From the NCBI GenBank assembly GCA_038207335.1, contig JBBQZX010000029.1, positions 14,861 through 78,860 on the forward strand: a stretch of DNA of 64,000 nt, read 5' to 3'. Below the pieces are notes generated by a model, which searched no databases, had not been told where the DNA came from, and saw only the letters and a program-made list of their open reading frames with translations. This stretch comes from Chthoniobacterales bacterium. Its GTDB lineage: Bacteria > Verrucomicrobiota > Verrucomicrobiia > Chthoniobacterales > Chthoniobacteraceae. Each line of letters begins with the position of its first letter. Position 1 is the first letter of the stretch. Positions 31,801 to 53,802 of the stretch are shown piece after piece. The translations under genes and the position numbers were made by a program.

Positions 31801-33321
31801 GACGTCCTGCGGGCCGGTGTCGTCCCGGAGAGCCCCGACTACCACCCGGGTGCCGGAGATCCCTACCGAACACCCGAAGAAGTCGCCCGTCCCCGGGCTG
31901 GGATTGTGGAGCGTCGCCACGGGAGTGGTGGGCGTCGTACTGGCGAGATCATACACGTAGGCACTGCCCGCGTCCTGCGCGCCAGTGTCCTCCCGGGTAG
32001 CCCCCACCACCATCCGCGTGCCGGAGATCGCCACCGAGGTGCCGAAGAAGTCGGCCGCCGCCGGGCCGGGGTTGTTCAGCTTCGCCACCGCTGTGGTCGG
32101 CGCCGCGCCCGCGAGGTCGTAAACGTAAGCACTGCCCGCGTCGGTGGCACCCATGTCGTCCCTGGGAGCCCCCACCACCACCGATGTGCCGGAGATCGCC
32201 ACCGACACGCCAAAGCCGTTGCCCGCTGCTGGGCTGGGTTCGGTGAGCGTCGCGAACGGAGTGGTCGGCGTCGCGCTCACGACATCATACAGGTAGGCTC
32301 TGTCCGAGCCGTTCCCGTAACCTCCCACTAATGCCCGCGTCCCGGAGATCGCTACCGACTTGCCGAAGTTGTTGTTGAACCCCGGGCTGGGGTCCGTGAG
32401 TGTCGCCATCGGTGTCGTCGGGTTCGCCCCGGCGAGGTCATACACGTAGGCGGCGCCAGCGTAGAGGATCTGGGAAGCCCCGACGGCCACGCGGGTGCCG
32501 GAGATCGCTACCGAGAACCCGAAAGACTTGACGGTGGCCAAGCTGGGATTGGTGAGCGTCGCCACCGGCGTGGTGGGCGTCGCGCTGGCGAGGTCATACA
32601 CGTAGGCGCTGCCCGCGTTCGTAGCACCCGTATCGTCTTGAGAAGCCCCCACCACCACCCGGGTGCCGGAGATCGCCACCGAGTTGCCGAATTGGTCGTT
32701 CGCCGCCGGGCTGGGGTTGTTCAGCGTCGCCACTGGAGTGTTCGGCGTCGCGCCGGCGAGGTCATACACATAGGCGCTACCCGCGTTGGTGGCACCCGTG
32801 TAGTCCGAGGGAGCCCCAACCACCACCCGGGTACCGGAGATTGCCACCGACTGGCCAGAGACTCGGCGGGGAGTGGTGAGCGCCATCACGGGAATGGTGG
32901 GCGTCGTGCTGGCAAGGTCATACACGTAGGCGATCCCCACGAGATTGGTCCCCGGGACATCGTCGAAAGCCCCCACCACGACCCGCGGGCCGGAGATCGC
33001 CACTGAACTTCCGAATCCATCGTACCGCGCCGGGGTCGGGTTCGGCAGCAAGTGGAGCAGCGCCCCGGTCGTGGAGTCGAACACTTTGACCACGCCCGAG
33101 TCCTGCGCGAGCAGATCGTCACTCGGCGCGCCCGTCACTGTGAGGTTCCCATCAGTCGCCACCGCGGAGCCGAGCTGCGCGCCCGGCTGCATCCCCACCG
33201 GCGGGGCCGGGATATAGTGGGTCGGCGCGGGAGTCGCCTGCCCGAGGGCCGCGGGCGGCGTGCCGGGGAAACAGGCGGACAGCGCGAGTAAGGCGATCGG
33301 GAGGCGGATTGAGCGATTCAT
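28886..33321 (-). pseudogene. Large secreted FG-GAP-repeat protein (14 blades, 2 Ig-like domains, C-terminal NxxGxxAF repeat domain) with a 1-bp frameshift at ~30500
   Basis: Start MNRSIR at 33321; ~58-aa repeats FGxSVAISGTRVVVGAxxDD...AYVYDL; the Ig domain continues in another frame (TFSVFATDAAGNAD) into ORF 28886-30430 with PSINDTGGVAF and PVLNATGQLAF. Confidence 0.8.
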
Positions 33322-33849
33322 GGCGGGTGAGCAGGGGGCGGTGGGCGAGTCGGGGGAAATGAAGCGGTGCGAGCAACGCGGAGCATGCCGTAGACGGAAC
33401 GAGGAACCAGTGGCAAACCGAGGCAACCTCCTCCGCAACGTGGCTCATGGTCCGAGCCAAAGCTGAAGACGAGAATTCTGACGCCCCACAAAAAGTGCGC
33501 GCGAAGGGGAGCCGCGTCAACAGTTCGATCGTTTTGTGGAGCAGCGTCCGAGCGCGGTGGCTTACAAGCGCGGCGCCCACCGCTTGCGGCGTCCCGGCCG
33601 CGGAAACGGCGGATTCGCCGGGTCAAAGGTCGTCGGCACCGCTTTCACCTGATCGGGCAACGGTGCGGGCAGGCATTTTGATCGCATTCATCACCGGCAA
33701 TCTCACCGGCCAAAGCGCGGCGAGCGAGCCGACGAAGGTGCTGGTACCGCAGCGGGCGCCGGGGGGACGCGTGGCGGCCGGCGGTTTAGGTGGAGAGGCC
33801 GAGGTGCGGCTTGGAAGACTCAGGTTTTCGCCCGCGACCGCTTGGGTGT

Positions 33850-38326: not shown

Positions 38327-38442
38327 CACCTTCACTCCACCCAGCATCTCGCCGAGGGCATTTCCAGCTTTGGACGCGTGACAAACCGTGAAAAATCAGC
38401 CTCCGAACACTGTCTTGTGCCGGTTTTTGGGCTTCTCGAAAG

Positions 38443-38524
38443 TGCCGGGGAGGGGACTCGAACCCCTACTCCTTGCGGAACCAGATCCTAAGTCTGGCGC
38501 GTCTGCCAATTTCGCCACCCCGGC
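38443..38524 (-). tRNA. tRNA-Leu (anticodon TAG), CCA not encoded
   Basis: GCCGGGG acceptor stem, D-loop TTGGCAGACG, CCAGA-CT-TAG-GA-TCTGG anticodon arm, long variable arm, GGTTCGAGTCC T-arm. Confidence 0.97.
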
Positions 38525-38566: not shown

Positions 38567-38583
38567 TGTGCTAGAATTTGTGC
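38567..38583 (+). repeat. 17-bp direct repeat, copy 1 (TGTGCTAGAATTTGTGC)
   Basis: Identical to 52044-52060. Confidence 0.8.
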
Positions 38584-38833: not shown

Positions 38834-40000
38834 ATGAACGCTACCCGCCTCTCTGGACTCACTCTTCTCGTGGTGTGTGTGGGAGGGGCGGCTTGGTGGT
38901 GGTCGAGCGCGCGATTTGCTTCCCCAAAGTCACTCGTTTCCAGCGATTCACGGCAAACCGGTAATGGTGTGACGACCCCGCTCGCGGTGAAGGCAACGCC
39001 GGCATCCACCTCTGAGGCCAAGGCGACCCTCCTCGACGACTTCGTGGACCGGCTCAACGGCGCAAACGCTCCAGCCGCGAGCCGGGAAATCCTCACGGCA
39101 TTGCGGACTCTGCTCGATTCGCTTCCCCGAGAGGTTGCTTCGCACGAAGCGCTGGCATTTCTCGCCGGGCAAAAGGACGCCGGGACCAAGCTGGACGTCA
39201 CCGTCAAGCCCGGCGGTACGCTCGGGGATGCGTCGTCGCTGCGTGTCTTTTTGCTCGATTACCTCGGACAGATCGACCGGCCCGCCGCCGCTGTGCTGGG
39301 AAAGCAAATCCTCAGCACGCCTGACTCGCCGGATGAATGGGCGGTGAGTCTGCGGAATGTCGCGTGGGGCGATGATACGCCGGCCAATCTCGACTATCTC
39401 CGCGCGAAGGCCCGCGAAATGATTTCCAATCCAAAGTGGCGGCAGAATCCCTCCGCCGGCTTTTTGGAAGCGTTCGACGTCATCGTTCATGCGAAAGGAT
39501 TCAACCTCGTGCCACAACTGACCGAACTGGTGCGCGACAAGGAAAACCGCGCCGTGGGCCACGCGGCCTACCTCACGCTGGACCGGCTCACCATCGCCGA
39601 TCCTGCGGCGGCTCTCGCTCCGCTCGCCGCGCACCCGGAGTGGATGGAAGGCCGCGAACAGACGCGCGCCAATTTCTTTGCCCGCGCCGACGTAAACGAC
39701 CCGCGGCAAAAGGCACTGCTCGAAAGCTACCTCCTCGATCCGCACCGGTCCGCGCTGGAGTTGCAGACCTTCGCGGGGCTCTACCCGAATGCGAACTACA
39801 TGATTTCCAACAATCTGCTCTCCGAAACCTCCACGCCCACGAACACGGAACTGGCGGCGCGAGACCGGGCGGCGCTCGAGGTTTTGGATTCGTGGCTGAA
39901 TGATTCGCGTTTTGCCCGCCTTCTGCCTCAACTCGAAGCGACACGCGCAAGGCTGCAATCCTTCGTCCAGCAGGCGTCACCATTGAAATCGTCACCGTGA
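38834..40000 (+). CDS. Hypothetical N-terminally membrane-anchored alpha-helical (HEAT-like) protein
   Basis: TM segment ending AWWWSS, S/T/P linker, amphipathic helical body; start MNATRL at 38834. Confidence 0.75.
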   Translation: MNATRLSGLTLLVVCVGGAAWWWSSARFASPKSLVSSDSRQTGNGVTTPLAVKATPASTSEAKATLLDDFVDRLNGANAPAASREILTALRTLLDSLPREVASHEALAFLAGQKDAGTKLDVTVKPGGTLGDASSLRVFLLDYLGQIDRPAAAVLGKQILSTPDSPDEWAVSLRNVAWGDDTPANLDYLRAKAREMISNPKWRQNPSAGFLEAFDVIVHAKGFNLVPQLTELVRDKENRAVGHAAYLTLDRLTIADPAAALAPLAAHPEWMEGREQTRANFFARADVNDPRQKALLESYLLDPHRSALELQTFAGLYPNANYMISNNLLSETSTPTNTELAARDRAALEVLDSWLNDSRFARLLPQLEATRARLQSFVQQASPLKSSP

Positions 40001-40091
40001 TTCAATGGAGAAGGGCATTGCGAGGGCCTGATTGGGACCGGGTTTCCCTTTTGACTTCGCATCAATGTGTTCCATCTTCGCGCGGCTTCCC

Positions 40092-43000
40092 ATGAAGAAC
40101 TCGCGTCCTCCTTGCTCATTCTCTTGGGCTTTGATGGTCTTGATTGCGTCCGTCGTGACGCTGTTTCCTTCCCTCGTTCGAGCACAGTCTGTCCCCGCCA
40201 CACTGCCGAATCTTCGGCTCTCGAAAGCGGGCGCAGTAACAACGATGGTGGTGCAGGCCGACGGAAAGGTCATCATCGGGGGGCGGTTCACACTCGTGAA
40301 CGGCGAACCGCGCGCAGGTCTCGCTCGGCTGAATCGCGACGGCTCGCTGGACACGACTTTCGGCGTGGATCTGGATGTTTTTGGCGACGTCACTGCGCTC
40401 GTGATCGAGGGCGATCACCTCTACGTCGGCGGCCGCTTCGACTTCGTCGGACAGGTGCGCCGGAGCCATCTCGCGCGGCTGATTCTGTCGGAAGGAGGCC
40501 GGGTCGATCCGACATGGGATAATTCAGTAAATGGGAATAACGGCGTGGGCGCTCTCGCAATGGATGCGGGACATCTCTACGTCGGCGGGGATTTTACAAA
40601 AATCGGCGGGGTCGCGCGGCGGCATCTCGCGCGAATCTCCCTTGCCTCGGGCTTGGTCGATCATGGCTGGACGGCTGATGTGAGCCGGGGAGATCGCCTC
40701 GCCATCCCCGTGGCTTGTCTTCAAGTGGACGGTCCGTGGCTCTATGTGGGCGGTGTCTTCAACGCGATCGGTGGCAAAGTCCGCAAGAGCCTGGCCCGGG
40801 TTGCCCTTGCTGGAAAAGGAACGGTCGATGCCGGATGGCGCCTTGATGTCAGGGCAGAGCACATTTCCATCGCGGCCGTAAACGCAATCTCGGTGGAAGG
40901 AGCGACGGTCTTCATCAATGCGTACCTGCAGATCCGAGTGCCGGCCTCCCGGCCCGCTGGAACCTTGATCACACAGCCTCTCGTCAAATTCCAGACCGAC
41001 GCCCAAGGTCATCTTGTCCGGGTGCCGGAATGGGTGCCCCCCGATAACGTTGACGTTGGCCTTCGCTCTCTCGTCCGCGTCGGAAATACGCTGATTGTTC
41101 CTGGGAGGATCGGAGGCCAGCCGTTCAAGATCGACGTGGACAGCGGATTGGTGGATGCGGACTGGGTGCCGCGGATCAGCGGGTCCGTCGGGTTTGTCGC
41201 CGTGGACGGCGGGCAGGTTTATGCAGGCGGAAATTTCGAGACGGTGAATGGCTCGGTGCATCTCAGCGTGGCTCGGCTGCGAGGCGATAACGGGCGCGGC
41301 GATCCGACCTTCAACGCGCAAGCCGGGGACACGGGCGATGTGAAGGCGCTGGCCGAGCAGCCGGATGGGAAAATTCTCGTGGGCGGCGATTTCAGTTTTG
41401 TCGGCAACGTGCCGCGCCGGCACTTGCTGCGGCTCAATGGCGACGGTTCGCTCGACCCGCTTTGGAACCCCGACGTTTCCGGGGATGTGTCGACGATCGC
41501 GGTGGCGGGGGACTCGATTTTCATCGCTGGCACCTTCGATACCGTCGGCGGACAGCCCCGGCTGGCTCTGGCGAAATTGAGCGCCACTGGGAGCGACGAA
41601 CCCGATCCCGCGTGGCGTGCGGACTGCCTCGGGAATCCATCCACGACGGGGGTTTCTCCCGCGACGCCGAAGCAGATCGCGACGGATGGAATTCACCTCT
41701 ACGTCAGCGGCTACTTTGCCACCATCGGCGGTGTGCAGAGGTCCGGCCTCGCGCGCGTCTCGCTAACCGGCACCGGGGTAGTCGATCCGCTTTGGGCCCC
41801 AGTGCTGCCGTTCACCTCGCTGCAGTCCACCGCATACCCGGGCACCTTTGCGCTAGGTTCCGAGTCCCTCTTCATCGCCGCCAGCTATCCCGTGGATCCT
41901 GACAAAGTGCTGCGGAAGGTCAGCTTGCAAGGCACCGGCGCCGTGGACCCGCTTTGGAAGCCGAAGGTGGGCGTGCTCCCGGAGGGCTACAATGGACCGG
42001 TGTCGGCTCTGGCGCTGCAAGGCCAGGATCTCTTTGTCGGAGGATACTTTACCCAAATCGCCGGTAAGACTCGCAAAGGATTGGCAAAAATCTCAACCAT
42101 GGGAAGTGGCGTCGTGGATTCCGCTTGGGACGCGAAGCTCGGGCTCAGCGCAGGCTACTACCCGCCCTCACCGGAGATCACGACGCTCCGGGTCAATGGC
42201 GACGTGATCTATGCTGCGGGGTCGTTCGATCGCGTCGATGGCCAAGTCGTCCGCGATGTCATCGGGGTCGATGCGAGCACCGGTGCGCTGCGTCGCAGTT
42301 ACGGCTATTTCACTGCCTCCTTGCCGTCCACGCTCCTTCCCCGCGGAAACGATCTGCTCGTTGCCGGCCCTTTTATCAAGGAGGGGGACTTCTACCATCC
42401 TACCAAGAGCGGTCTCGTCCTCGCTCCAATCGCTCTCGCGCCGGTGCTCACGGGCGATGCGAACGACCCCTACACTTTCTACATCGCGCCGAATGCGGCG
42501 GATGGGTCGGAGGTCACGCACTTCCAGTTGCAGGTCGATGCGGTGCTCGGGGGGCAAATGTTTCTACCGGATGGGGTGACGCCGGTCCCCAGCGAGAGCT
42601 TCGTCACCCGGGAGCAGGGGCGGGCGGGGTTGAAGTTTGTGCCGGCGACGGGGTCGCAGGGGGCTGGGACAGTGGTCGCATTGGCGGGCGTGAATGCAAC
42701 GAGCGAAGGGCTCGGCTCGGAGTCGTCCACGCTGACGCTTTCCTCCACAATCAATGTCCCGATTTTCGAACTGAGCAGTGACCACTACTCGGTGCGCGAG
42801 CGGGATGGCGCTGTCGTCATCACCGTTCTGAATCGCAATGGCCTCGCGGGCCAAGTCGCCTACACTCTTACCGACCAGACAGCGCGCGCCGGAATCGACT
42901 TCGACGCGGCGGCAAGCAACGGCGTGCTCGATTTCACGGCGGGCCAGACCAGCCGGACGATCACCGTGCCGATCACGGACAACGGAATCGCGACCGGCGA

Positions 43001-46000
43001 CCGCGTCTTTCTCGTCACGCTCTCGTCCACGGCTGCAGCACCCAATCGTTTCGCCTCGAGGTCCCTCGTGGCGAATGGATCGAGCATCGCCGCAGCACCC
43101 GCCAGTCCGCCGCTCGGCATCGTGGGACTGCGCAGCGGTGCGGAGGTGGTGATCTTTGACAGCGACTTTGCCGGCGGACGCACGGGCTCATTGCTCGAAG
43201 TCGTCGCGCCCTCCCCAGCGCCTTCCGCTCTCGGCACGATCTCCCTCGCACTCAATCCGGCCACACCCGGCCAGTGGCGGCTCGTCGGCGATTTCGTGTG
43301 CCGCGAAAGTGGGGCGACGATGACCGGGCTGACGCGCGGAAACTTTGACATCGAGTTCCGCTCCGCGCTGGGATTTCGCGACGTGCCGCCCATCCCGGTC
43401 GCGCTGCAAAGCGGCACGCATTACTCTGAGGCGGTGGATTACGCGCCACTGAGCGCGCCGCCGCAGCCGGGTGATTTCACGGTCACGCTGCGGCCCAATT
43501 ATCTCGCCACCGCAAGCGACATCGCCCAACGCGCGCAGTGGCGGCGCGAGGGTGAAGCGACATGGCACGACAGCGGCGAAGTCGTCCCCGGCATCGACGA
43601 AGGGGTTTACACGATTGAGTTCAAGCACCTAGACGGCTTCGACGAGCCGACGCCGCTGCTCGCGGTCATCGGCGCGAACCAACTCAGCGCCGTCTCCGTC
43701 AACTACCGCCTCGCCGAAACCCAGTCCGGTGCCGCGCCCGCCGCGCTGACATTTGCCGAGACGACAAACCGGCCGTTTGAGTTTGGCGGGCAGGTCCAGA
43801 CGGGGCGCGGCTTTGGCTCGGGCTTTGTGGTCGATACGCGCACCGTGCTCACCGCCGCCCATGTGCTTTTCGACGACGAGGCCCTCGGCTACGTGCCCAC
43901 CGTGCGCTGGCTTTTTCAAAAAACGCGCGGCGAATTCGAACCGGAGCCTCTGACCCCGCGCGGGTGGTATGTCTTCGAGGGATACGCCGCGCAACGCCTC
44001 GGGGATCGCACAGACCGTGCTTTCGAGGCGAATGAGGCCTCGCCCGAGTCGCGTCATCTGGACGCCGCTGCGCTCTATTTTTTCACCGACACCCAGGCTC
44101 CCGGACGCGGCGGCTACGGCGGATTCCTGATCTCCGACACCGATGAAAATGAATGGCTCACCAGCGCCCGCGCGAAGCGGCTGTCGGGCTACCCGATGGA
44201 AGGCGTGGCGGAGGATGCTCGCGGCCGTATGCACGCCACCCCGGAGTTGAGCGGCGCGCTCAGTCGGGTCAATGGCCGGGTCTTCCGCACGAGCGAATAT
44301 CACGGGCTTGCCGGCATGAGCGGCGGCCCGCTGCTCGTCTCCGCGGACGATGCACAATTCTATCCCGCAGCAATTTTCCTCCACAGCGGGGGCGAGACGT
44401 TTGTCCGGGCGATCGATTCCGATGTTCTCGGCTTGATCAATCGTGCCCAAACGTCGGCGAGTAGCGGAGGCAACAGCGCCAGCGGCGGCATCACTGTCGT
44501 TTCACCGAATTTTACGACGACTCGCTTTGCCCCGTGCCAGCTTCGGGTTTTGCTTCGGACGCCCGGCGGAACGCCGATGCTTCAGGGGGGGTGGATTGTC
44601 GAAGGGCTGCGGAGCTATCAACCGACGGACACGACGGTCACCCTCAATGAACCCAAGCACTACATCGTCCGCTTTCTCCCGGTCGATGGCTTCGCGACTC
44701 CGCCTCCGATCGAAGTGGCGCTCGCGGATCATCAACTGACGACGCGCTCCACCATTTACCATGTCGGATACAAATACACCCTCACCAGTGCCGATCAGAA
44801 ACAGGGCACGGTCGGGCCGTCGCTTTACGAGCAAGCCGCCAACGCTACCGCGACCGCCCAACAAGGTGCCGTCGCCACTGTCTTCGCCCGTCCCAACAAA
44901 GACTACGCGTTTGACCATTGGACGGATGGTTCGGGCGCTACCGTGAGTTTCGCCGCTAAATATCAGTTCCCTGCGACGACGAATCGCACCCTCGTCGCAT
45001 ACTTTCAACCCGGACCATTTATACCCTATCGAGGAAGTTATGAGGGTCTGATCGGCTTGATCACAATGAACGGCCCTGGCACCAATCCGGATGGCGGCTT
45101 CACTCTGAATTTGGATGGAGGTGGTCGATACACCGGAATCGTCAAGCTTCAGGGAAAACGCTACGCAATCAAAGGACGGTTCAGCGAAAACGGGAGCGCG
45201 ACGTACGCTTTAAACACGACTCCTCCTCTCGTGGTGGAGTTAAAGATCGATCTCGAAAACGGGACAAACCAAATCAAGGTGATTTTCCGGGACGGTGACG
45301 CGGAGCTCGCGCAATCCAGTCTCAACTTGGCTACTCCTTTTGACGGAAAAACACCGCAGACGACCACGCCGCTGAAAGGCAGCTACACTTTCGCCATCCC
45401 CCACCGAGCGACCCAGGGAGTGCCGCAGGGCGATGGCTATGGAACAGTGGTAGTGGATGCGAAGGGACGCGCGCGCGCCGCAGGTAAACTCGGCGACGGA
45501 ACTGCCTTCGCGGCCGGCGCGCGGCTGGTGAGCAGATCGCAATTTTCCCTGTTCGCGCCCCTTTACGGGAAGCTCGGTGCCGTCGCAGGGTTATTCACGT
45601 TCGATGACGCTCCGCCCGGGAGTGATATTACAGCACCGTTCGCCTGGTCCCGCCCGACCTTACGCGACGGCACTCCGGCGCTCCAAACATCGCTCATCCT
45701 CTCCGGGTCGCGATACGCGTCGCCTGCGTTCGACTTTTCCGCTGCTACATTCTCTGTGTCTGGCGGTGCCCTTACTCCTCCTGTCCCTGTAAAATCGATC
45801 ACCCTCGATCCAGCAAAGAACCGCGGCAGCGGCGTGGCGGGGGATGGATTTTCCATCCGAGTAGCCCCTGCCACTGGTTTACTTTCCGGGAGTTTTCTCG
45901 ACCCGACGGGCAAGCCCCGTCCTTTCTTCGGAGCACTTCTGCAGAAATCGCGGACCGGGCAGGGCTTTTTCCGTGGCCCAGCGGGTCAATTAGGCTCCTT

Positions 46001-46022
46001 CGAACTGATTGCGATCCCGTAG
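40092..46022 (+). CDS. Giant secreted protein: delta-60-type propeller repeats, Calx-beta, trypsin-like serine protease, C-terminal beta-rich domain
   Basis: Signal peptide; 14 repeats of the QxDGK-I-GGxF type; Calx-beta (LDFTAGQTSRTITVPITDN); triad LTAAH, HLDAAA, GMSGGP. Confidence 0.85.
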   Translation: MKNSRPPCSFSWALMVLIASVVTLFPSLVRAQSVPATLPNLRLSKAGAVTTMVVQADGKVIIGGRFTLVNGEPRAGLARLNRDGSLDTTFGVDLDVFGDVTALVIEGDHLYVGGRFDFVGQVRRSHLARLILSEGGRVDPTWDNSVNGNNGVGALAMDAGHLYVGGDFTKIGGVARRHLARISLASGLVDHGWTADVSRGDRLAIPVACLQVDGPWLYVGGVFNAIGGKVRKSLARVALAGKGTVDAGWRLDVRAEHISIAAVNAISVEGATVFINAYLQIRVPASRPAGTLITQPLVKFQTDAQGHLVRVPEWVPPDNVDVGLRSLVRVGNTLIVPGRIGGQPFKIDVDSGLVDADWVPRISGSVGFVAVDGGQVYAGGNFETVNGSVHLSVARLRGDNGRGDPTFNAQAGDTGDVKALAEQPDGKILVGGDFSFVGNVPRRHLLRLNGDGSLDPLWNPDVSGDVSTIAVAGDSIFIAGTFDTVGGQPRLALAKLSATGSDEPDPAWRADCLGNPSTTGVSPATPKQIATDGIHLYVSGYFATIGGVQRSGLARVSLTGTGVVDPLWAPVLPFTSLQSTAYPGTFALGSESLFIAASYPVDPDKVLRKVSLQGTGAVDPLWKPKVGVLPEGYNGPVSALALQGQDLFVGGYFTQIAGKTRKGLAKISTMGSGVVDSAWDAKLGLSAGYYPPSPEITTLRVNGDVIYAAGSFDRVDGQVVRDVIGVDASTGALRRSYGYFTASLPSTLLPRGNDLLVAGPFIKEGDFYHPTKSGLVLAPIALAPVLTGDANDPYTFYIAPNAADGSEVTHFQLQVDAVLGGQMFLPDGVTPVPSESFVTREQGRAGLKFVPATGSQGAGTVVALAGVNATSEGLGSESSTLTLSSTINVPIFELSSDHYSVRERDGAVVITVLNRNGLAGQVAYTLTDQTARAGIDFDAAASNGVLDFTAGQTSRTITVPITDNGIATGDRVFLVTLSSTAAAPNRFASRSLVANGSSIAAAPASPPLGIVGLRSGAEVVIFDSDFAGGRTGSLLEVVAPSPAPSALGTISLALNPATPGQWRLVGDFVCRESGATMTGLTRGNFDIEFRSALGFRDVPPIPVALQSGTHYSEAVDYAPLSAPPQPGDFTVTLRPNYLATASDIAQRAQWRREGEATWHDSGEVVPGIDEGVYTIEFKHLDGFDEPTPLLAVIGANQLSAVSVNYRLAETQSGAAPAALTFAETTNRPFEFGGQVQTGRGFGSGFVVDTRTVLTAAHVLFDDEALGYVPTVRWLFQKTRGEFEPEPLTPRGWYVFEGYAAQRLGDRTDRAFEANEASPESRHLDAAALYFFTDTQAPGRGGYGGFLISDTDENEWLTSARAKRLSGYPMEGVAEDARGRMHATPELSGALSRVNGRVFRTSEYHGLAGMSGGPLLVSADDAQFYPAAIFLHSGGETFVRAIDSDVLGLINRAQTSASSGGNSASGGITVVSPNFTTTRFAPCQLRVLLRTPGGTPMLQGGWIVEGLRSYQPTDTTVTLNEPKHYIVRFLPVDGFATPPPIEVALADHQLTTRSTIYHVGYKYTLTSADQKQGTVGPSLYEQAANATATAQQGAVATVFARPNKDYAFDHWTDGSGATVSFAAKYQFPATTNRTLVAYFQPGPFIPYRGSYEGLIGLITMNGPGTNPDGGFTLNLDGGGRYTGIVKLQGKRYAIKGRFSENGSATYALNTTPPLVVELKIDLENGTNQIKVIFRDGDAELAQSSLNLATPFDGKTPQTTTPLKGSYTFAIPHRATQGVPQGDGYGTVVVDAKGRARAAGKLGDGTAFAAGARLVSRSQFSLFAPLYGKLGAVAGLFTFDDAPPGSDITAPFAWSRPTLRDGTPALQTSLILSGSRYASPAFDFSAATFSVSGGALTPPVPVKSITLDPAKNRGSGVAGDGFSIRVAPATGLLSGSFLDPTGKPRPFFGALLQKSRTGQGFFRGPAGQLGSFELIAIP

Positions 46023-46068
46023 CACGGAGCAGATCGTGGACACAATCCTTCGCCTCGACTCAACGCGA

Positions 46069-49000
46069 ATGACGCTCCCTTTCTCGCGCGCAGTGTGGTG
46101 CGTCGCGCTTCTGATGCTCTCGCCTTGCGCACATTCCCAGCAGGCGCCAGCGCAGTTTGCGGAGCTCGTGGAGAAGGAGGAGACGGTGGAGATGCAAAAG
46201 CCGGGCACGGCGTGGAAGGTGGCGGACAAGGGGGCGAAGCTGGCGATCAAGGACAAGCTGCGGACGGGGGAGTTCAGTCGCGCGGTGGTGCGGCTGCTCG
46301 ATCTGAATTTGCTGCGGGTCGACGAGCTTTCGACCATCGAGATTTCGGCGCCACTTTCACCGGGTGGAAAAGGCACCCTCGAGGTCAAACAGGGGGGCAC
46401 TTACTTTTTTAGTCGCGAGAAAGCGCAGGAGATGCAAATCCGCACACCGGCGGTGAATGGCGCGCTGCGCGGGACGGAATTTGCGCTGCGGGTGGCTGAG
46501 AACGGGCGGACGGTGCTGACGATGTTCGAGGGCGAGGTGGAATTGAGCAATCCGCAGGGGCGCGTGCTGCTGAAGAGCGGCGAGCAGGGCGATGTCGAGG
46601 TGGGAGGCGTGCCGCGCAAAACCGCCGTGATCGACGCGGTGAACATCATCCAGTGGTGTCTCTACTATCCTGGCGTGCTCGATCCGGCAGGACTTGGCTT
46701 GAGCGCTGGTGAGGAGCGCGAGCTGACTGCTTCGCTCGCCGCGTATCGCGCCGGTGACTTGCTCGGGGCGCTCGCGAAGCACCCGCACGCGCGTGTCGAT
46801 GGTTCGATGGGGGCTCGGCTTTACCGCGCCGCCGTTTTGCTCTCGGTCGGGCAGGTGGAAAAGGCGCGCGCCGCGATGGTCAGCGTGCCGCCAACACATC
46901 CCGGACGGCGCGCGCTGGAGGAAGTGATCGCTGCCGTGAAATTCCAGGAATGGCCGCGCGGCCCGGCCCCGCAAACAAGCAGCGAGTGGCTCGCGGAGTC
47001 GTACTATCAGCAATCGCGCAGTAGCCTCGAACCGGCGCTGGCCGCGGCGCGGAAAGCGGTGGAGCTGTCGCCGGAATTCGGCTTCGCGTGGACGCGGGTT
47101 GCGGAGCTGGAATTCTCTTTCGGCCGCACAGCACCTTCACTGAAAGCACTCGAGCGCGGGCTCGCGCTGGCGCCGCGAAATGCACAGGCGCACGCGCTGC
47201 GCGGGTTTTTGCGTAGCGCCCAAAATCGGATCGGTGCGGCCCGCGAGTCGTTCGACGAAGCCATTGCGCTCGATGGCGCGCTCGGAAATGCGTGGCTCGG
47301 GCGCGGGCTGACTTTCATCCGGCAAGGCTACGCGGACGCAGGCCGGCACGACCTGCAAACGGCGGCGGTGCTCGAGCCGAATCGCTCGATTTTGCGCAGC
47401 TATCTGGGCAAGGCATTCAGCCAGACGGGGAACGACGCGAAGGCGCGCAACGAGTTCGCGCGAGCGGAGGAACTCGACCCGAACGACCCGACGCCGTGGC
47501 TCTATTCGGCGATCCAAAACAAGCAGGAAAACCGCTACAATGCCGCGGTGCGGGACGTGGAGAAATCGATCGATCTCAACGACAACCGCCGCGTGTATCG
47601 CTCGCAGTTTCTGCTCGATCAGGATCGCGGCGTGCGCGGCACGAATCTCGCCGCGATCTATCTCAACGAAGGGATGCGCGATGTGAGCGTGCGCGAGGCG
47701 GTGCGCGCGGTGGACTCCGATTATTCGAGTGCGGCGGCGCATCTTTTTCTCGCGAACAGCTACGACGCGCTGCGCGATCCGACCCGCGTGCTGCTGCGCT
47801 ATGAGACGCCGTGGTTCAGCGAGCTGCTGCTGGCGAATCTGCTCGCGCCGGTGGGCGGGGGGCCGCTGTCGCAGTTCGTCTCGCAGCAGGAATACTCGAA
47901 GCTTTTCGAAGCCGACGGCTTCGGGATCAGTTCGGTGAGCGACTACTTTTCGACGGGCGAATTCCGAGAGACCGGCTCGCAATATGGCACGTTTGGAAAC
48001 CTCAGTTATGCGCTCGACGCAGAGTATCAATCCGACAATGGCCGGCGTCCGAACAGCGCGATTCAGCGGCTCGAAACGTACGCCACTTTCAAGCTCCAGA
48101 TCAGCCCGCAGGACACGGTTTTTTTCCAGACGAAATTCGAAGACCTGCATACCGGCGATGTGCTCCAGCGCTACGATGCGACCGGGCGCGGGCAGAGCGC
48201 CGCGGACCGCACGCTCGACTTCCGCGAGAAGCAGACTCCGGCGCTACTGCTGCTCGGACTGCATCACGAATGGAGCCCCGGCATTCACACGCTGTTGCTG
48301 TTCGGCCGACTGGCCAATGAGCAGGCGCTGACCGCGGACTCGACAAGTCAAACGATCGCGACTCGCGACAGCACTGGTCGAGTCTCCGCCGATTCGCTCG
48401 CAAAAGGGGGAGGCAGCGTGACTTACGGGGACGTGCTCGGCGCGCTTGAGCGCAACGCCGCGGGTCGAGGCAGTGTGCGGTCTTTCGGCGGTCTTCCGTT
48501 CGACTTCAGCTACCATCCGAAGTTCGAGACGTTCACGGGCGAGCTGAATCAAATCGTCACCGCCGGGCCAATGACGTTTATCGTCGGCGGGCGGTATCAA
48601 AGCGGCGAATTTCACACGAAGGATGAACTCCTCCATTCGCGCGATGTCACCGGCTTAAGACCGCGCGGGACTTCCCCGCGAGCACAACTCCGAGTCACCG
48701 CTGCGGGCGCCACGGTGCAAATACCAAAATCGGTGAGTCGCACCCAATTGTCACTCAACCGGGAATCGCTTTCTGAATTCTTCGGCGAGCCGCCGGCGAG
48801 CGACGATGTCACGGTCGATTTCCATCGTCTCAGCCTTTACGCCTACGACATCTGGCGGCTCGCGCCGTGGCTATCGTTCACGGCTGGCGTGGGCTTCGAC
48901 CAGATCGAATATCCCGAAAACTTCCGCAGCCCACCGGTCGATGATCGCACGACGGAGTTCGACCGAGTTTCGCCGAAGCTCGGCTTCATTCTCACGCCGT

Positions 49001-49812
49001 TGCGCGGGACGACAATCCGCGGTGCCTACACCGAGTCGATCGGCGGGGCGAGCTTCGATGAAAGCATCCGGCTCGAGCCAACACAAATCGCCGGCTTCAA
49101 TCAGTCGTATCGGACGCTCATTTCGGAATCGGTTGCCGGCTCCGTCGCCGCGCCGATTTACAAAAGCTACGGGTTGAGCCTGGAGCAGAAGCTCCGTTCG
49201 AGCACGTATCTAGGAGTCGAGCTTAACCGCGTGGAGCAGGATGTTGATCGCGTCGTGGGCGCGTTCGATTACTTTCCCGCGAACGAATCCAACGGATTCC
49301 CCGACGCGATCGTTCCCTCTTCGCTGCGCGAAAAACTCTCCTATTCCGAGGAGTCCGCGACCGCAACAATCAACCAGCTCGCGGGCGATTGCTGGGCTCT
49401 GGGCGCGCGATACCGCTACACGCGCTCGCATTTGCACGACGAGTTTCCCGGGCTGACGCGAGCGGTCTTTTCTAGAACGGAAACGACGACCGAGTCGCGG
49501 CTCCACGAACTCTCGCTTTACGCGCTCTACAATCATCCGAGCGGCATCTTTGCCCGCGCGGAGGCGAATTGGTTCAGCCAAGAAAACGACGTTCCGCCGA
49601 ACCCGGCGCAACCGAAAATCGACCCCATGCCGGGCGACGATTTCTGGCAGTTCAATGTCCTCGCGGGCGTCCGCTTTCACCGCAATCAGTGCGAGTTGAG
49701 CTGCGGCCTGTTAAACATCACCGGCGAGGATTATCACCTCAGTCCGTTGAACCCATACGTCGAGTTACCGCGCGATCGGACAGTGGTGGTGCACTGTAAA
49801 ATCAGCTTCTAA
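46069..49812 (+). CDS. Outer-membrane receptor: FecR domain + TPR repeats + TonB-dependent-receptor-like beta-barrel (NsrA-like)
   Basis: LRTGEFSRA, IRTPAVNGALRGTEF (FecR); TPRs including LDPNDPTPWLYSA; beta-strand C-terminal region ending KISF. Confidence 0.85.
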   Translation: MTLPFSRAVWCVALLMLSPCAHSQQAPAQFAELVEKEETVEMQKPGTAWKVADKGAKLAIKDKLRTGEFSRAVVRLLDLNLLRVDELSTIEISAPLSPGGKGTLEVKQGGTYFFSREKAQEMQIRTPAVNGALRGTEFALRVAENGRTVLTMFEGEVELSNPQGRVLLKSGEQGDVEVGGVPRKTAVIDAVNIIQWCLYYPGVLDPAGLGLSAGEERELTASLAAYRAGDLLGALAKHPHARVDGSMGARLYRAAVLLSVGQVEKARAAMVSVPPTHPGRRALEEVIAAVKFQEWPRGPAPQTSSEWLAESYYQQSRSSLEPALAAARKAVELSPEFGFAWTRVAELEFSFGRTAPSLKALERGLALAPRNAQAHALRGFLRSAQNRIGAARESFDEAIALDGALGNAWLGRGLTFIRQGYADAGRHDLQTAAVLEPNRSILRSYLGKAFSQTGNDAKARNEFARAEELDPNDPTPWLYSAIQNKQENRYNAAVRDVEKSIDLNDNRRVYRSQFLLDQDRGVRGTNLAAIYLNEGMRDVSVREAVRAVDSDYSSAAAHLFLANSYDALRDPTRVLLRYETPWFSELLLANLLAPVGGGPLSQFVSQQEYSKLFEADGFGISSVSDYFSTGEFRETGSQYGTFGNLSYALDAEYQSDNGRRPNSAIQRLETYATFKLQISPQDTVFFQTKFEDLHTGDVLQRYDATGRGQSAADRTLDFREKQTPALLLLGLHHEWSPGIHTLLLFGRLANEQALTADSTSQTIATRDSTGRVSADSLAKGGGSVTYGDVLGALERNAAGRGSVRSFGGLPFDFSYHPKFETFTGELNQIVTAGPMTFIVGGRYQSGEFHTKDELLHSRDVTGLRPRGTSPRAQLRVTAAGATVQIPKSVSRTQLSLNRESLSEFFGEPPASDDVTVDFHRLSLYAYDIWRLAPWLSFTAGVGFDQIEYPENFRSPPVDDRTTEFDRVSPKLGFILTPLRGTTIRGAYTESIGGASFDESIRLEPTQIAGFNQSYRTLISESVAGSVAAPIYKSYGLSLEQKLRSSTYLGVELNRVEQDVDRVVGAFDYFPANESNGFPDAIVPSSLREKLSYSEESATATINQLAGDCWALGARYRYTRSHLHDEFPGLTRAVFSRTETTTESRLHELSLYALYNHPSGIFARAEANWFSQENDVPPNPAQPKIDPMPGDDFWQFNVLAGVRFHRNQCELSCGLLNITGEDYHLSPLNPYVELPRDRTVVVHCKISF

Positions 49813-49819
49813 TTCGCGC

Positions 49820-51931
49820 GTGTCCCCTCCCCTCGCCGCCGTCGCACCCGCCCGCGCGAAACCCTCGAAGCCGCATCGCCGCTTGATCCGGGGGTTGCTG
49901 GCGGCGGCGGCCAGTGCCTTCGGGGCTGGCATTATCGGAGCGGTCGGCTGGGCGCTGGCGGATGCTTCACTCGCCGCCGGAACCTACGGCGAACGGGCGA
50001 AGCCGCGTCTCGGCTGGCTCGTCGGCTCGATCGGCGAAAGCTTCGCACGGTTGAGCTACGATTTGCCGTTCATCTTTCGTGGACGGGTGGAGCAGCCCGG
50101 TGCGTGTATCATTTACCTCGACGAATCTTCCGCTGCCGCGCTGGGACAAAACGAGGGCGTCTGGAATCGCTCACTCCACGCGCAGCTCGTCCGCAAACTG
50201 ACCGAAGAAGGAGCGCGCGCGATTTTCTTCGACCTCGTTTTTTCCAACGCCTGGCCCGAACCCAAAGTCGATGAGGACTTCGCGGTCGCAATCCGGGAAA
50301 ATGGGCATGTCTTCCTCGGAGGTGCGCTGGAACTCGACGACGGGATCGGAGCATTGCAGGAGCGCACGCTCGCTCCGGTTTCCATTCTGCGCCGTGCCGC
50401 CGCGGGCTGGGGACTGCTCGCATTTCGCCCGGTGGATGCCGACTACAGCGTGCGCCGGATTTACACTGGCTTGGACAATGTCCCGTCGGCGACATGGCGT
50501 GCCGCGATCAAGCTCGGCGCGCCGCTGATCGACTCGCCGGAGGAGCGCGCGAAGTGGCGCTGGATGAACTACTACGGACCGAACAAATCCTTTCTCAGTC
50601 TCAGCTACGACCGGGCGATCGCTCCAGACGGATCGCCCCCAAATTTTTTCCGCGACCGCATCGTTTTCATCGGCGGGCGGCCCACGCTCGGTGCCTTGGC
50701 GATGGGCCGAGACGAATTTCGGACGCCGTTCGGCTGGCTGAACGCTGAATTTTCGACCGGCGTGGAAGTGCACCTCACCACCCTGCTCAACCTGCTCCAC
50801 GGCGACTCTCTCACCCGGCTCGGTGCGGAACGTGAGCTGTGGCTGGTCCTGAGTTTCGGCGTCCTGCTCGGCGGCATCCTGCCTCTTTTCCGCCCGCACC
50901 TGGCCGCTGCTGCAGCCGTCCTCGCGGCCATCGGCATCGGCGCCGCCGCGTTCTGGCTTTTTCAAAAAGAGCACGTCTGGTTTGGCTGGTGCATCCCTGC
51001 ATTCGCCCAGACGCCGCTCGCGATCGGCTGGGCGGTGGGCACTCGATATTTCCTCGAGGAACGGCGGCGCACGGCGTTGCGCCAGGCGTTTTCGCACTAC
51101 CTCTCGCCGCAAATGGCCGACCGCATCGCCAACGCCGACTTCGATCTCCGGCCTGGAGGCGCCTTGGTCGAGGCGAGTGTGATGTTCACCGACCTCGAAG
51201 ATTTCACCGCACTCACCGAGCGGCTGAACGACCCGGAGCGACTCTCGGAAATCCTCACGCGATACTTCACCCAAACCACGAGTCACGTCCTCGAAAACGA
51301 TGGCACGATCATCAAATACTTCGGCGACGCCGTGCTCGCAGTCTGGGGTGCGCCGATCGCGGACAAAAACCACGTCCAAAAAGCGGCGCTCGCCGCGTGC
51401 CGGCTCCACGCCGCTTCCGGCATCGAAGTCGATGGGCGTGCGCTCAGGACGCGGGTCGGTCTCCACTCTGGGATGATGCTCGCTGGCAATCTCGGCTCCG
51501 CGCAACGCTTCGATTACTCCGTCATTGGCGACGCGGTGAATTTCGCCTCCCGGCTTGAGGGCCTGAACAAATACTTCGGGACGAACATCCTCATTTCAGA
51601 CGCCACTCGCCAACGTCTCGGGGACGCATTCCTCACCCGCTGCCTTGGTAAATTTAGAGTCGTGGGGAAGTCGGAGGCAATCGTAATTCACGAGCTTTTG
51701 GGTCCAGCAGAAACCTGCGGGCCTGCGCCCTGGCTGGAGCAGTTTGCGCGCGGCCTCGATGCGTTTCGGCTCAGCGAATTCGGTCTCTGCGAACAACTCA
51801 TGCAGCAGGTGATCGACTCGCGACAGGGTGCAGATGGGCCGGCATCATTTTACGTGAGCAAGATCGCGGAATTCCGTGAAGATGGCGTCCCTCTTGGCTG
51901 GGACGGGTCAATTCAATTCACATCGAAGTAA
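49820..51931 (+). CDS. CHASE2-domain class III adenylate cyclase
   Basis: CHASE2 (IIYLDE, IFFDLVF, GVEVH), 3 TM helices, FTDLEDFT, IIKYFGDAV, DYSVIGDAVNFASRLEG; Lys/Asp indicate ATP specificity. Confidence 0.92.
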   Translation: MSPPLAAVAPARAKPSKPHRRLIRGLLAAAASAFGAGIIGAVGWALADASLAAGTYGERAKPRLGWLVGSIGESFARLSYDLPFIFRGRVEQPGACIIYLDESSAAALGQNEGVWNRSLHAQLVRKLTEEGARAIFFDLVFSNAWPEPKVDEDFAVAIRENGHVFLGGALELDDGIGALQERTLAPVSILRRAAAGWGLLAFRPVDADYSVRRIYTGLDNVPSATWRAAIKLGAPLIDSPEERAKWRWMNYYGPNKSFLSLSYDRAIAPDGSPPNFFRDRIVFIGGRPTLGALAMGRDEFRTPFGWLNAEFSTGVEVHLTTLLNLLHGDSLTRLGAERELWLVLSFGVLLGGILPLFRPHLAAAAAVLAAIGIGAAAFWLFQKEHVWFGWCIPAFAQTPLAIGWAVGTRYFLEERRRTALRQAFSHYLSPQMADRIANADFDLRPGGALVEASVMFTDLEDFTALTERLNDPERLSEILTRYFTQTTSHVLENDGTIIKYFGDAVLAVWGAPIADKNHVQKAALAACRLHAASGIEVDGRALRTRVGLHSGMMLAGNLGSAQRFDYSVIGDAVNFASRLEGLNKYFGTNILISDATRQRLGDAFLTRCLGKFRVVGKSEAIVIHELLGPAETCGPAPWLEQFARGLDAFRLSEFGLCEQLMQQVIDSRQGADGPASFYVSKIAEFREDGVPLGWDGSIQFTSK

Positions 51932-52043: not shown

Positions 52044-52060
52044 TGTGCTAGAATTTGTGC
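52044..52060 (+). repeat. 17-bp direct repeat, copy 2 (within a TGTGCTAGA-ATT-TGTGCTAGA tandem)
   Basis: Identical to 38567-38583. Confidence 0.8.
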
Positions 52061-52164
52061 TAGAGTGGGTGCTTTTCTGGCGGTCCTTCTGACCAGTAGC
52101 TTTGAGCGGTGAATCGCCCGGAGAGGCTGATAAACGCTTGAGAAGATGGAATTCCAAGCACGGC

Positions 52165-52492
52165 CAATTCTCTCGGCACTGCGGAGCCTGCTCGACGCGC
52201 TTCCAAGAGAGGTTGCTTCGCGCGAGGTCGGAAGACGGACGGGGTCGTCATCCACGAACTTCTCGCTACCGCGGCGGAGACGGTGTTGGAGCCTTGGCTC
52301 GAAAGTTTACGCGCGGGCTCGAGACATTCCGGCGCGCCAGCTCGACGAATGCGAACTGCAAATGCGCGAGACGATCTCGGCGCGCAGCAGCGTGGATGGA
52401 CTGGCAACATTCTATTTGGGAAAGCTGGAGATGTTGCGCCAAAAGGGCTGCCGCCTGATTGGACCGGCGCAATCGAATTCACCTCGAGCTAA
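52165..52492 (+). pseudogene. Chimeric relic: fragment of a 38834-gene paralog fused to a frameshifted cyclase 3' end
   Basis: ILSALRSLLDALPREVASRE vs ILTALRTLLDSLPREVASHE; then VVIHELL..PWLES(F)TRGLETFR..DGLATFY..LPPDWTGAIEFTSS* vs IVIHELL..PWLEQFARGLDAFR..DGPASFY..VPLGWDGSIQFTSK*. Confidence 0.85.
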
Positions 52493-52671
52493 GAACCGGC
52501 GAACCCGCACGTGCGGAATGTCGTGGCCCAAGCAATATCTCCTGATTCCGCAATCGCAATGCGTTCACTAAAACTGAGCTTCCGATCAGAGGCTGGGATC
52601 TGTCACGCCTTCGAAAATTAATCAAAAAAACCGCTGGACAACACGAAATGCGCTCTATATCCCGGACGGTC

Positions 52672-53220
52672 ATGAGATCAAGCGCGCGCCGGAAATATCT
52701 GATTCACTCGTTGACTTTGGCAGTGGTAGGTTTCCTCGGCGTCGGCCGGGCATTTGGCGGAGCGGATGAAGCATCCGATAAAGCCTTTCAAATGGCTGCA
52801 AAATACTCGGCAATGGGTTATTACGTGGCTCCCAGCAAGGAGGGGTGGACCGGATTCGGCGTCACACTCGAGTTCACCGTGCCCGTGAGCGCCGGTGTGG
52901 ACTACATCTTTATCCTCGGTGGCGACAAATACCTGCTCGATCCCGATGTGTGGATCGAGTCTGAATACGGCAACACGATCGTGAAAGATACCCGCAAATA
53001 CGATAACGGAATGTGCGGCGTGCGCTGGCGTTCCGACTACAATGGGACTGCGAATGTTGTCGTACACATCGCTCGCGCGACCAGTCGCTGCGCTTGGGCC
53101 GCTGTCATGGGCCGCAGAGGCACCGCGACAAACCGCGTTCCAAACGAGTTCGGAACCTCGACCCCTTCGGTCGCGATACCCACTCCCGGAAAGCCGGTTC
53201 AGGCCGTCGGTGGAGAATAA
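52672..53220 (+). CDS. Hypothetical secreted protein (PPC-like beta-sandwich)
   Basis: Signal peptide; VPVSAGVDYIFILGGD..DPDVWI..GNTIVKD pattern. Confidence 0.65.
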   Translation: MRSSARRKYLIHSLTLAVVGFLGVGRAFGGADEASDKAFQMAAKYSAMGYYVAPSKEGWTGFGVTLEFTVPVSAGVDYIFILGGDKYLLDPDVWIESEYGNTIVKDTRKYDNGMCGVRWRSDYNGTANVVVHIARATSRCAWAAVMGRRGTATNRVPNEFGTSTPSVAIPTPGKPVQAVGGE

Positions 53221-53249
53221 CGGCGATATTTCCTCAACACGGCATCGAT

Positions 53250-53495
53250 ATGAAAAAAGCTCTGACGGCTGCGGCCCTTTGCGTCGTTTGCATGACTGCT
53301 TGTAAGACCCGCACCGTGGTTTACACGACGCCCACGGCTCGCCCGGCACCTGCGACCGGGCCGACGCGGACGGTCACCAATACCGTGTATGTAGAATCCG
53401 AATCCGACCAACCGACTTCATTGCCGGGGCAGCCCCACAAAGTTTCGGACCCCGGATCTGCGGAAAATTTCCGCGCATCCGAGACCGAGCGCTAA
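53250..53495 (+). CDS. Small lipoprotein
   Basis: MKKALTAAALCVVCMTAC lipobox; T/P-rich. Confidence 0.65.
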   Translation: MKKALTAAALCVVCMTACKTRTVVYTTPTARPAPATGPTRTVTNTVYVESESDQPTSLPGQPHKVSDPGSAENFRASETER

Positions 53496-53521
53496 CTATC
53501 AACTTAACCATCAGCCACCTT

Positions 53522-53740
53522 ATGCGTAAACTATTGCTCATTCTCCCGCTTGCCATCGCCACGCTGCTGCCGGCTTGCACGACAAAAACCGAAGTAGTCG
53601 CCCTGCAACCGGTTTCAAAGCCCGCGCCGAAGCGAGTCGCCTCTTCGACGACGACGGTGCACGTTCATAAAACTGGCGCGCCGCGTCCCACCCCTTGGGC
53701 GACCGACGTGGTGAACGCTTACGACGAGAAGCGGGATTAA
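53522..53740 (+). CDS. Small lipoprotein
   Basis: MRKLLLILPLAIATLLPAC lipobox. Confidence 0.65.
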   Translation: MRKLLLILPLAIATLLPACTTKTEVVALQPVSKPAPKRVASSTTTVHVHKTGAPRPTPWATDVVNAYDEKRD

Positions 53741-53802
53741 AGGTCTTGATGAGGTAGAGCAAGGTTCTTGAATTTCGCGCGCCGGCATCCGGCCGCGCAG
53801 CA

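Follow-up and report, generated by a model that had tools for sequence, protein, structure and literature searches.

The receptor NsrA of Sinorhizobium meliloti has FecR and TPR content, and its gene, nsrA, adjoins cyaK. Two reports describe NsrA as an outer-membrane beta-barrel protein that works with the inner-membrane CHASE2 cyclases CyaK and CyaD1/D2, raising cyclic AMP (cAMP) on a protease-sensitive protein signal (PMC7529298, PMC13001267). Here we analyze a stretch of 64,000 nucleotides from a Chthoniobacterales bacterium (assembly GCA_038207335.1, contig JBBQZX010000029.1, positions 14,861 to 78,860 of the forward strand), referred to below as the window. Four neighboring genes in this window encode an anchored helical protein (H), a giant protease (P), a FecR-TPR-beta-barrel receptor (R) and a CHASE2 cyclase (C). 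This four-gene cassette is real and recurs in Verrucomicrobiota; the R-C relay is of a known type, while the H family is undescribed.

38834..40000, + strand: H (gene 1), 388 amino acids (aa), membrane-anchored helical protein
40092..46022, + strand: P (gene 2), 1976 aa from the likely ATG, giant protease
43737..44471, + strand: trypsin-like catalytic domain within P, with triad codons His 43860, Asp 44061 and Ser 44319
46069..49812, + strand: R (gene 3), 1247 aa, FecR-TPR-beta-barrel receptor
49820..51931, + strand: C (gene 4), 703 aa, CHASE2 and Guanylate_cyc domains

An earlier note, made from the DNA sequence alone, had described four co-oriented genes beside a tRNA-Leu gene with a gap of 7 bp between R and C, and the coordinates of the open reading frames (ORFs) bear this out. 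In the following, L-numbers denote loci and G-numbers genomes that were compared, G000 being the genome that holds the window.

FecR proteins are encoded with CHASE2 sensors of variable output elsewhere as well. Published examples are a Campylobacterota CHASE2 cyclase-FecR-TPR-phosphodiesterase cluster and the Burkholderia BiofilmReg arrangement of a LysM-FecR protein and a CHASE2 kinase (PMC9239204, PMC5192318). Unlike the cassette, neither is credited in the passages considered with a dedicated protease or an anchored helical partner. The ligand and the logic of a FecR-barrel/CHASE2 relay are known only from S. meliloti, and a version that carries a protease allows a test of ligand production by proteolysis.

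The strongest association within the cassette was that of H with P. In an even sample of 151 genomes of the order (the order sample), the H profile matched 28 genomes and the P profile matched the identical 28, with no discordant case; two of these positives had contributed to the profiles. By listed coordinates, the two genes were within 2 kb of each other in 24 of the 28. A second set of 32 genomes, picked for H or R (plus G519 and G000) and partly circular because some members built the profiles, contained 14 genomes with both genes, one with H only, none with P only and 17 with neither. H and P distances were correlated (rho 0.83, n=28), with the reservation that kin are not independent. 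H and P are a near-obligate pair.

The pairing extends to forms without a relay. G000 has a second H gene on contig C4, directly 3' of a gene for a 246-aa trypsin-like protein with a signal peptide (C4:214578-215318); the two genes together span C4:214578-216472 (L030:8679-10573), and no R or C was present in the 20 kb around this paralogue. Minimal members of the trypsin-like family have no pro-region after the signal peptide. In G481 (L174-L178), one H gene accompanies five scattered P genes, and in G574 (L191-L194) four scattered Ig-flanked proteases accompany a distant H. H can work in trans, as in G481. Near the minimal pair (G000:C4:219427-232148) lies a run of Ser/Thr kinase proteins with long leucine-rich-like repeats, some of them apparently split. 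Another H gene, at L057:134-13422, is found with two tandem proteases adjoining a cluster of 7 tRNA genes.

Modeling of H together with its giant neighbor, which the earlier note had proposed, gave a high-scoring complex with the protease domain (0.90, against 0.25 for the best control). Of 157 solved complexes, 116 attained the mark used for such scores, as did 2 of 215 mismatched pairs; these counts apply only roughly with our own alignments. At least 81% of the contacts were common between runs, and the predicted local distance difference test (pLDDT) value of the partner was at least 90. The near-invariant loop 319-327 of H faces strand 83-91 of the modeled protease chain, and the interface excludes the catalytic residues H50, D117 and S203. 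Conservation was higher in the interface columns of H than in its other columns (0.70 vs 0.57, p 5e-4). The model supports the prediction that H binds the protease domain of P. The possibility, raised previously, that the anchored protein is a chaperone has gained ground in this way: co-occurrence and the complex model identify it as a partner of P, and we consider it probable that H is a dedicated chaperone of the protease domain, one that likely assists its folding.

The same strict co-occurrence and predicted complex would also be compatible with an immunity protein, or with a permanent tether that holds the protease off or keeps it in the periplasm and has no folding role. The modeled interface even reaches residues just before the N-x-x-G-G linker that follows the protease domain. 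It spares the catalytic residues, however, and the large extracellular-type domains of P fit poorly with permanent retention. One H with five scattered P genes also better suits a recycling chaperone, and we regard an immunity or tethering role as unlikely.

Membrane-anchored helpers of secreted enzymes are otherwise described for lipases and for one metalloprotease, in the papers considered. The Lif/LipH lipase foldases and Acinetobacter CpaB are presented as membrane-anchored chaperones of type II secretion substrates (PMC13381987, PMC4713064). H resembles them in having its gene beside that of a secreted enzyme, a single N-terminal membrane helix, a flexible linker and a periplasmic domain, and also in the helical cradle that spares the active site, which on the side of H is a predicted model. 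The differences are that H lacks the Lif motif and has a HEAT/ARM-like fold, that the CpaB client is a metalloprotease and CpaB is assigned an SRPBCC domain, and that the client of H is an S1 serine protease, not a lipase or a metalloprotease. The consensus of H around its DYL differs from the Lif motif RXXFDY(F/C)L(S/T)A, and H has no lipase-chaperone match in Pfam.

H had no family match in Pfam, NCBIfam or PADLOC. Its AlphaFold model (mean pLDDT 90) comprises a membrane helix at residues 3-26, a disordered linker rich in Pro, Ala, Ser and Thr, and an alpha-solenoid. Fold searches matched H to generic ARM/HEAT solenoids alone (best Z 12.0, root-mean-square deviation 5.5 over 281 aligned residues), with no Lif chain among the matches listed. 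The Atlas places relatives of H in unnamed Verrucomicrobiota clusters, a minority of whose members carry HEAT families. Of the 8000 candidates that were scored for the family, 625 proved to be relatives at E 0.001. An N-terminal membrane helix was present in 49 of 56 H sequences. A lipoprotein anchor was ruled out, as a lipobox was found in 0 of 56. No H-P fusion was found among longer proteins, an absence that is weak evidence. Judged by sequence, H is a separate, undescribed chaperone-like family outside Lif, and this previously unannotated family gains a testable role as membrane-anchored partner of an S1 protease family. The earlier statement that the four-part unit had no prior description still holds: the main texts of open-licence PMC and bioRxiv papers yielded no description of the unit or of the H family, supplements being outside this scope and the neighborhood supplements of Kaur et al. 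being ones that could bear on it. One H gene (L006) lies within a metagenome-assembled genome titled Akkermansia muciniphila, a label that is possibly wrong.

The P protein starts with a signal peptide, followed by DUF5122 propellers, Calx-beta, Ig domains, the S1 trypsin-like domain, the N-x-x-G-G linker, Flg_new_2 and a C-terminal domain of about 335 aa. Pfam recognized the DUF5122 repeats, Calx-beta and Flg_new_2; the Ig domains are PEGA-like by our own label. The protease domain of the window P was not called by Pfam and was recognized by alignment with relatives, and most of the matches of P homologues to Trypsin_2 or Trypsin fell short of the curated cut-off. The S1 motifs TAAH, D and G-x-S-G-G are present. 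The intact His-Asp-Ser triad reported for P in the earlier note is upheld by its conservation, the three residues being retained in 26, 27 and 27 of the 27 sequences in the alignment, respectively. The best PDB match of the P-family profile was Bacillus glutamyl endopeptidase (1p3c, E 8e-8), which shares the trypsin fold motifs and the triad; in contrast to it, the P domain is embedded in giant multi-domain proteins, and the minimal members of the family are without a pro-region. In V8-type enzymes, a His gives Glu specificity. The P domain has no His at the matching column.

The C-terminal domain of P (45012-46022, the last ~335 aa) is common to 9 other G000 proteins, always at the C-terminus. 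Most proteins that share it start in a signal-peptide-like manner, and their Atlas clusters consist of unnamed Verrucomicrobiota proteins. We treat it as a candidate for a sorting or anchoring domain specific to the lineage. G000 carries secretin genes.

R combines a signal peptide, FecR, TPR and a C-terminal barrel in one protein, with Pfam matches to FecR, TPR and TonB_dep_Rec_b-barrel. In a profile alignment it was homologous over nearly its full length to a protein without annotation from a plasmid of S. fredii (972 columns, probability 99.75), although with only 23% identity. The S. fredii homologue directly precedes a CHASE2 cyclase, a Neorhizobium locus holds the same pair, and neither H nor P was found near these two rhizobial plasmid loci. 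The rhizobial matches were unannotated plasmid proteins, and no S. meliloti record was among the matches listed. C carries D458, K499, D503, S567, N574 and R578, which we take to be the set expected for an adenylate cyclase; the protein is an inner-membrane CHASE2 class III cyclase whose residues fit that activity. PADLOC had no match for H, P or R; its PycC models did match the cyclase domain, but only at the level of class III cyclases in general. The S. fredii alignment supports the earlier assignment of receptor and cyclase to the NsrA-CyaK kind, and R very probably signals to C in a relay of this type.

The Verrucomicrobiota relays differ from NsrA-CyaK also in that their CHASE2 outputs include Ser/Thr kinase, histidine kinase and TIR domains besides cyclase. 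Within the class, 22 of 201 genomes contained R. A CHASE2 gene was present in 21 of 28 receptor loci, with cyclase as output in 13, Ser/Thr kinase in 4, histidine kinase in 3 and TIR in 1. The 25 H loci with a CHASE2 gene had cyclase in 14, kinase in 4 (2 distinct, 2 scanned) and TIR in 4 (3 scanned, 1 by sequence), and in 3 the gene was cut off. CHASE2-TM-TIR proteins, with TM standing for a transmembrane segment, are encoded beside the receptor at L088:4561-6219, L096:13181-14740, L106:6048-7679, L091:5385-7013 and L166:9681-11243. They match PADLOC TIR models weakly. The conserved TIR Glu is catalytic, and all 5 tails keep it. No description of a CHASE2 and TIR combination was found in the open-licence PMC and bioRxiv literature searched. 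The earlier designation of the cassette as a cAMP signaling unit was too narrow, since cAMP is only one output among kinase and TIR variants, and the output swaps, TIR domains with the conserved Glu included, suggest possible roles of these relays beyond the tuning of cAMP.

How the two halves of the cassette could cooperate is a question on which our preferred answer is tentative, with slightly less than an even chance of being right: H matures P in the periplasm, and the protease of surface-located P makes a ligand that R passes to C. The signal peptide of P would probably take it across the inner membrane. On the periplasmic side, the anchored H would probably hold the protease domain at a surface away from the active site and then let P go in an export-competent state; a single H could serve several P genes. 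P would then likely be displayed on the surface via its lineage-generic C-terminal domain, and the interchangeable propeller/Ig part would bind an outside target. The protease would cut either this target or its own N-x-x-G-G linker, which is the weakest step. The barrel loops of R would sense the product, and the signal would travel via TPR and FecR to CHASE2, switching on cAMP synthesis. The folding role, the export and the making of a ligand are steps that we infer.

Counts centered on H derive largely from the top 80 of 231 metagenome matches. They comprise 97 H loci, 89 after removal of near-duplicates, of which 32 are flanked by 3 kb or more on each side. Among these 32, P was present in 19, R in 17, C in 10, all four genes in 9 and none of the partners in 9. 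The 9 complete loci show 9 arrangements and 8 core orders (L043 and L045 share one), none of which matches that of the window. Because gene order and orientation are shuffled, a single shared transcript is not required. The earlier proposal of a four-gene module stands insofar as all four genes recur together in 9 other loci; it falls insofar as the unit is not fixed and each module is often found alone.

Sampling without this bias gave a sparser picture. In the order sample, R was present in 6 of 151 genomes, 3 of which also had H and P, and 25 of the 28 genomes with H and P had no R match. No R match was found in 10 H-positive genomes in a search without a positive control; the R search of the order sample had one. 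The neighborhood comparison proposed in the earlier note therefore had a divided outcome, with H homologues co-occurring with R and C in loci that lean toward the clade of the window and mostly apart from them in unbiased samples. The cassette is a recurring composite of separate H+P and R+C modules, each commoner alone in unbiased samples.

What distinguishes the linked forms is the protease subtype. In R-linked P proteins, the catalytic domain is internal, flanked by Ig domains and usually followed by the N-x-x-G-G linker, and in genomes without R it is N-terminal. R was present in 3 of 3 order-sample genomes with the Ig-flanked internal subtype and in 0 of the 25 other H+P genomes. The linker was found in 26 of 31 vs 1 of 15 sequences, counts that are descriptive because the pattern was defined after viewing the alignment. 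In a quick H tree with long branches, all R- or C-linked H except that of L154 fall in one 91-row clade, and linked and unlinked receptors are interspersed in the receptor tree. A single joining event, followed by losses or relocation, would accommodate the receptor tree. H and R distances were correlated (rho 0.70, n=28). In G582, a genome of the same genus, P, R and C are in cis and H is elsewhere.

The modules could also be functionally unrelated, clustered once by chance and then co-inherited. Each is far commoner alone in genome samples and linked forms belong mostly to one clade, as such a history would predict. Adjacency, however, has outlasted at least 8 rearrangements of order or orientation as well as swaps of the CHASE2 output, and in 67 of the 69 H loci that have any module gene the nearest one is at most 700 nt away. 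We judge such a chance clustering of unrelated modules to be very improbable.

Several observations nevertheless weigh against ligand production by P for R. None of the findings connects P with R or C, either physically or in function. The H-centered loci, given how they were selected, are biased to the clade of the window, and the link between protease subtype and R is largely that of one clade and therefore does not represent many independent events. From the side of the receptor, P was present in only 2 and H in 1 of the 28 receptor loci within the 20 kb fetched, and in 17 of 21 receptor genomes H and P were both absent. (One of the two receptor loci with P, L150, extends into a cluster that holds C, H and another P.) H-C distances were uncorrelated (rho 0.09, p 0.28), and the P-C correlation was not significant. 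On the protease side of the modeled interface, conservation was not above the rest (p 0.15). Two further points, a complete locus with a dead triad and the presence of other giants beside R, bear on the nature of the ligand as follows.

In L154 (2403-11714, G494), all four genes are kept although Gln replaces the catalytic His and the N-x-x-G-G linker is missing. In 6 or more of the 28 receptor loci (L141, L142, L144, L145, L149, L160), giant secreted proteins without a protease domain adjoin R. Both would make sense if the whole giant protein, the receptor's own or a neighbor's, were the ligand of R, as a contact or export-monitoring signal to which catalysis is incidental. The retention of P, R and C in cis in G582 would fit this reading too, as would the response of NsrA to the intact protein uL2, reported for S. 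meliloti. On the other hand, the triad is kept in every other aligned family member long enough to show it, and P shares no domain with the non-protease giants according to the Ig profile. We consider a whole-protein ligand a serious rival, albeit an unlikely one.

As an observation in its own right, large secreted Ig/propeller or unnamed non-protease neighbors of R were noted at L141, L142, L144, L145, L149, L160, L163, L164, L167 and L189. The relay may generally be partnered with a surface protein.

The direction of the pathway could also be the reverse, with R and C sensing an outside protein, cAMP or a kinase turning on the adhesin-protease, and H serving as its chaperone. This is the other serious rival, and we rate it as rather unlikely. 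In its favor, giant secreted proteins with unrelated architectures are often encoded next to receptor loci, several cNMP-binding (cyclic nucleotide-binding) proteins are encoded in G000, and the S. meliloti relay controls a regulon through Clr. The limitation of R linkage to the Ig-flanked protease subtype speaks against it; no recurring regulator gene was present among the scanned neighbors either, a shared upstream site not having been searched for.

Returning to P as the source of the ligand, the passenger domains of P vary by locus and include FG-GAP, SBBP, RCC1, NHL, LVIVD and DUF5122 repeats as well as Ig domains. It is conceivable, if doubtful, that the cassette is a modular surface surveillance system, in which swappable propellers detect an outside target, the chaperone-matured protease makes a peptide signal, and an NsrA-like receptor relays it to a swappable output. 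If so, the targets would be the surface of a predator, phage, competitor or host, and a TIR output could shut the cell down. The trypsin-containing conflict systems (Kaur et al., 2020, 2021) are similar in their constant core, variable propeller sensors and TIR, kinase or cyclase effectors, but the main text of neither paper contains an account of the cassette. FecR and CHASE are not mentioned in the 2020 text, and the one CHASE2 mention in the 2021 text concerns EACC2-caspase, a different system.

The flanks of the cassette hold a repeat and a relic.

38442..38524, - strand: tRNA-Leu, divergent from the cassette
38567..38583, + strand: 17-bp repeat, copy 1, containing TG-n-TAGAAT
52044..52060, + strand: 17-bp repeat, copy 2, heading the relic
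52156..52495, + strand: relic of a second cassette copy, with an H fragment to 52225, 4 bp, then the frameshifted 3' end of a cyclase gene

Positions 52161-52225 of the relic are about 83% identical to H, and positions 52229-52495 align, with frameshifts, to the last ~90 codons of the cyclase gene (score 131; the highest score among 200 shuffles was 50). The relic is what remains of a second cassette that has decayed and lost its interior, H standing at the 5' end and C at the 3' end. The earlier note had concluded that the first and last genes travelled together; the decayed copy does carry both ends, in a layout compatible with joint duplication, but it is no proof of transfer.

The 17-bp repeat at 38567 and 52044 has no third copy anywhere in the G000 genome and, with up to 2 mismatches allowed, was found in a single other locus among 184. 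Its TG-n-TAGAAT may read as an extended -10-like element or, alternatively, as an att-like arm site; the promoter scan gave no full sigma-70 site.

Since the tRNA-Leu gene is on the - strand, the cassette sits on its 5' side. A tRNA was present in 6 of 60 loci, so that tRNA-Leu is a non-conserved neighbor and the tRNA neighborhood singled out in the earlier note is not a feature of the cassette. A tRNA-associated island as a general feature was rejected on the grounds of this count, the 5' position and the flank-like GC content. No integrase was seen among the window ORFs scanned with Pfam. The GC content of the cassette resembles that of the flanks, and GC at third codon positions is somewhat lower (0.72-0.76 vs 0.77-0.84).

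Downstream of the relic, at 52648-53741 of the window, are three small + strand ORFs, one of 190 aa without a Pfam match. Two short ORFs near 53250 and 53522 appeared lipoprotein-like in a by-eye reading. On the - strand, at 28886-33438, the window encodes a 1073-aa FG-GAP/Kelch repeat protein and a DUF7453 protein.

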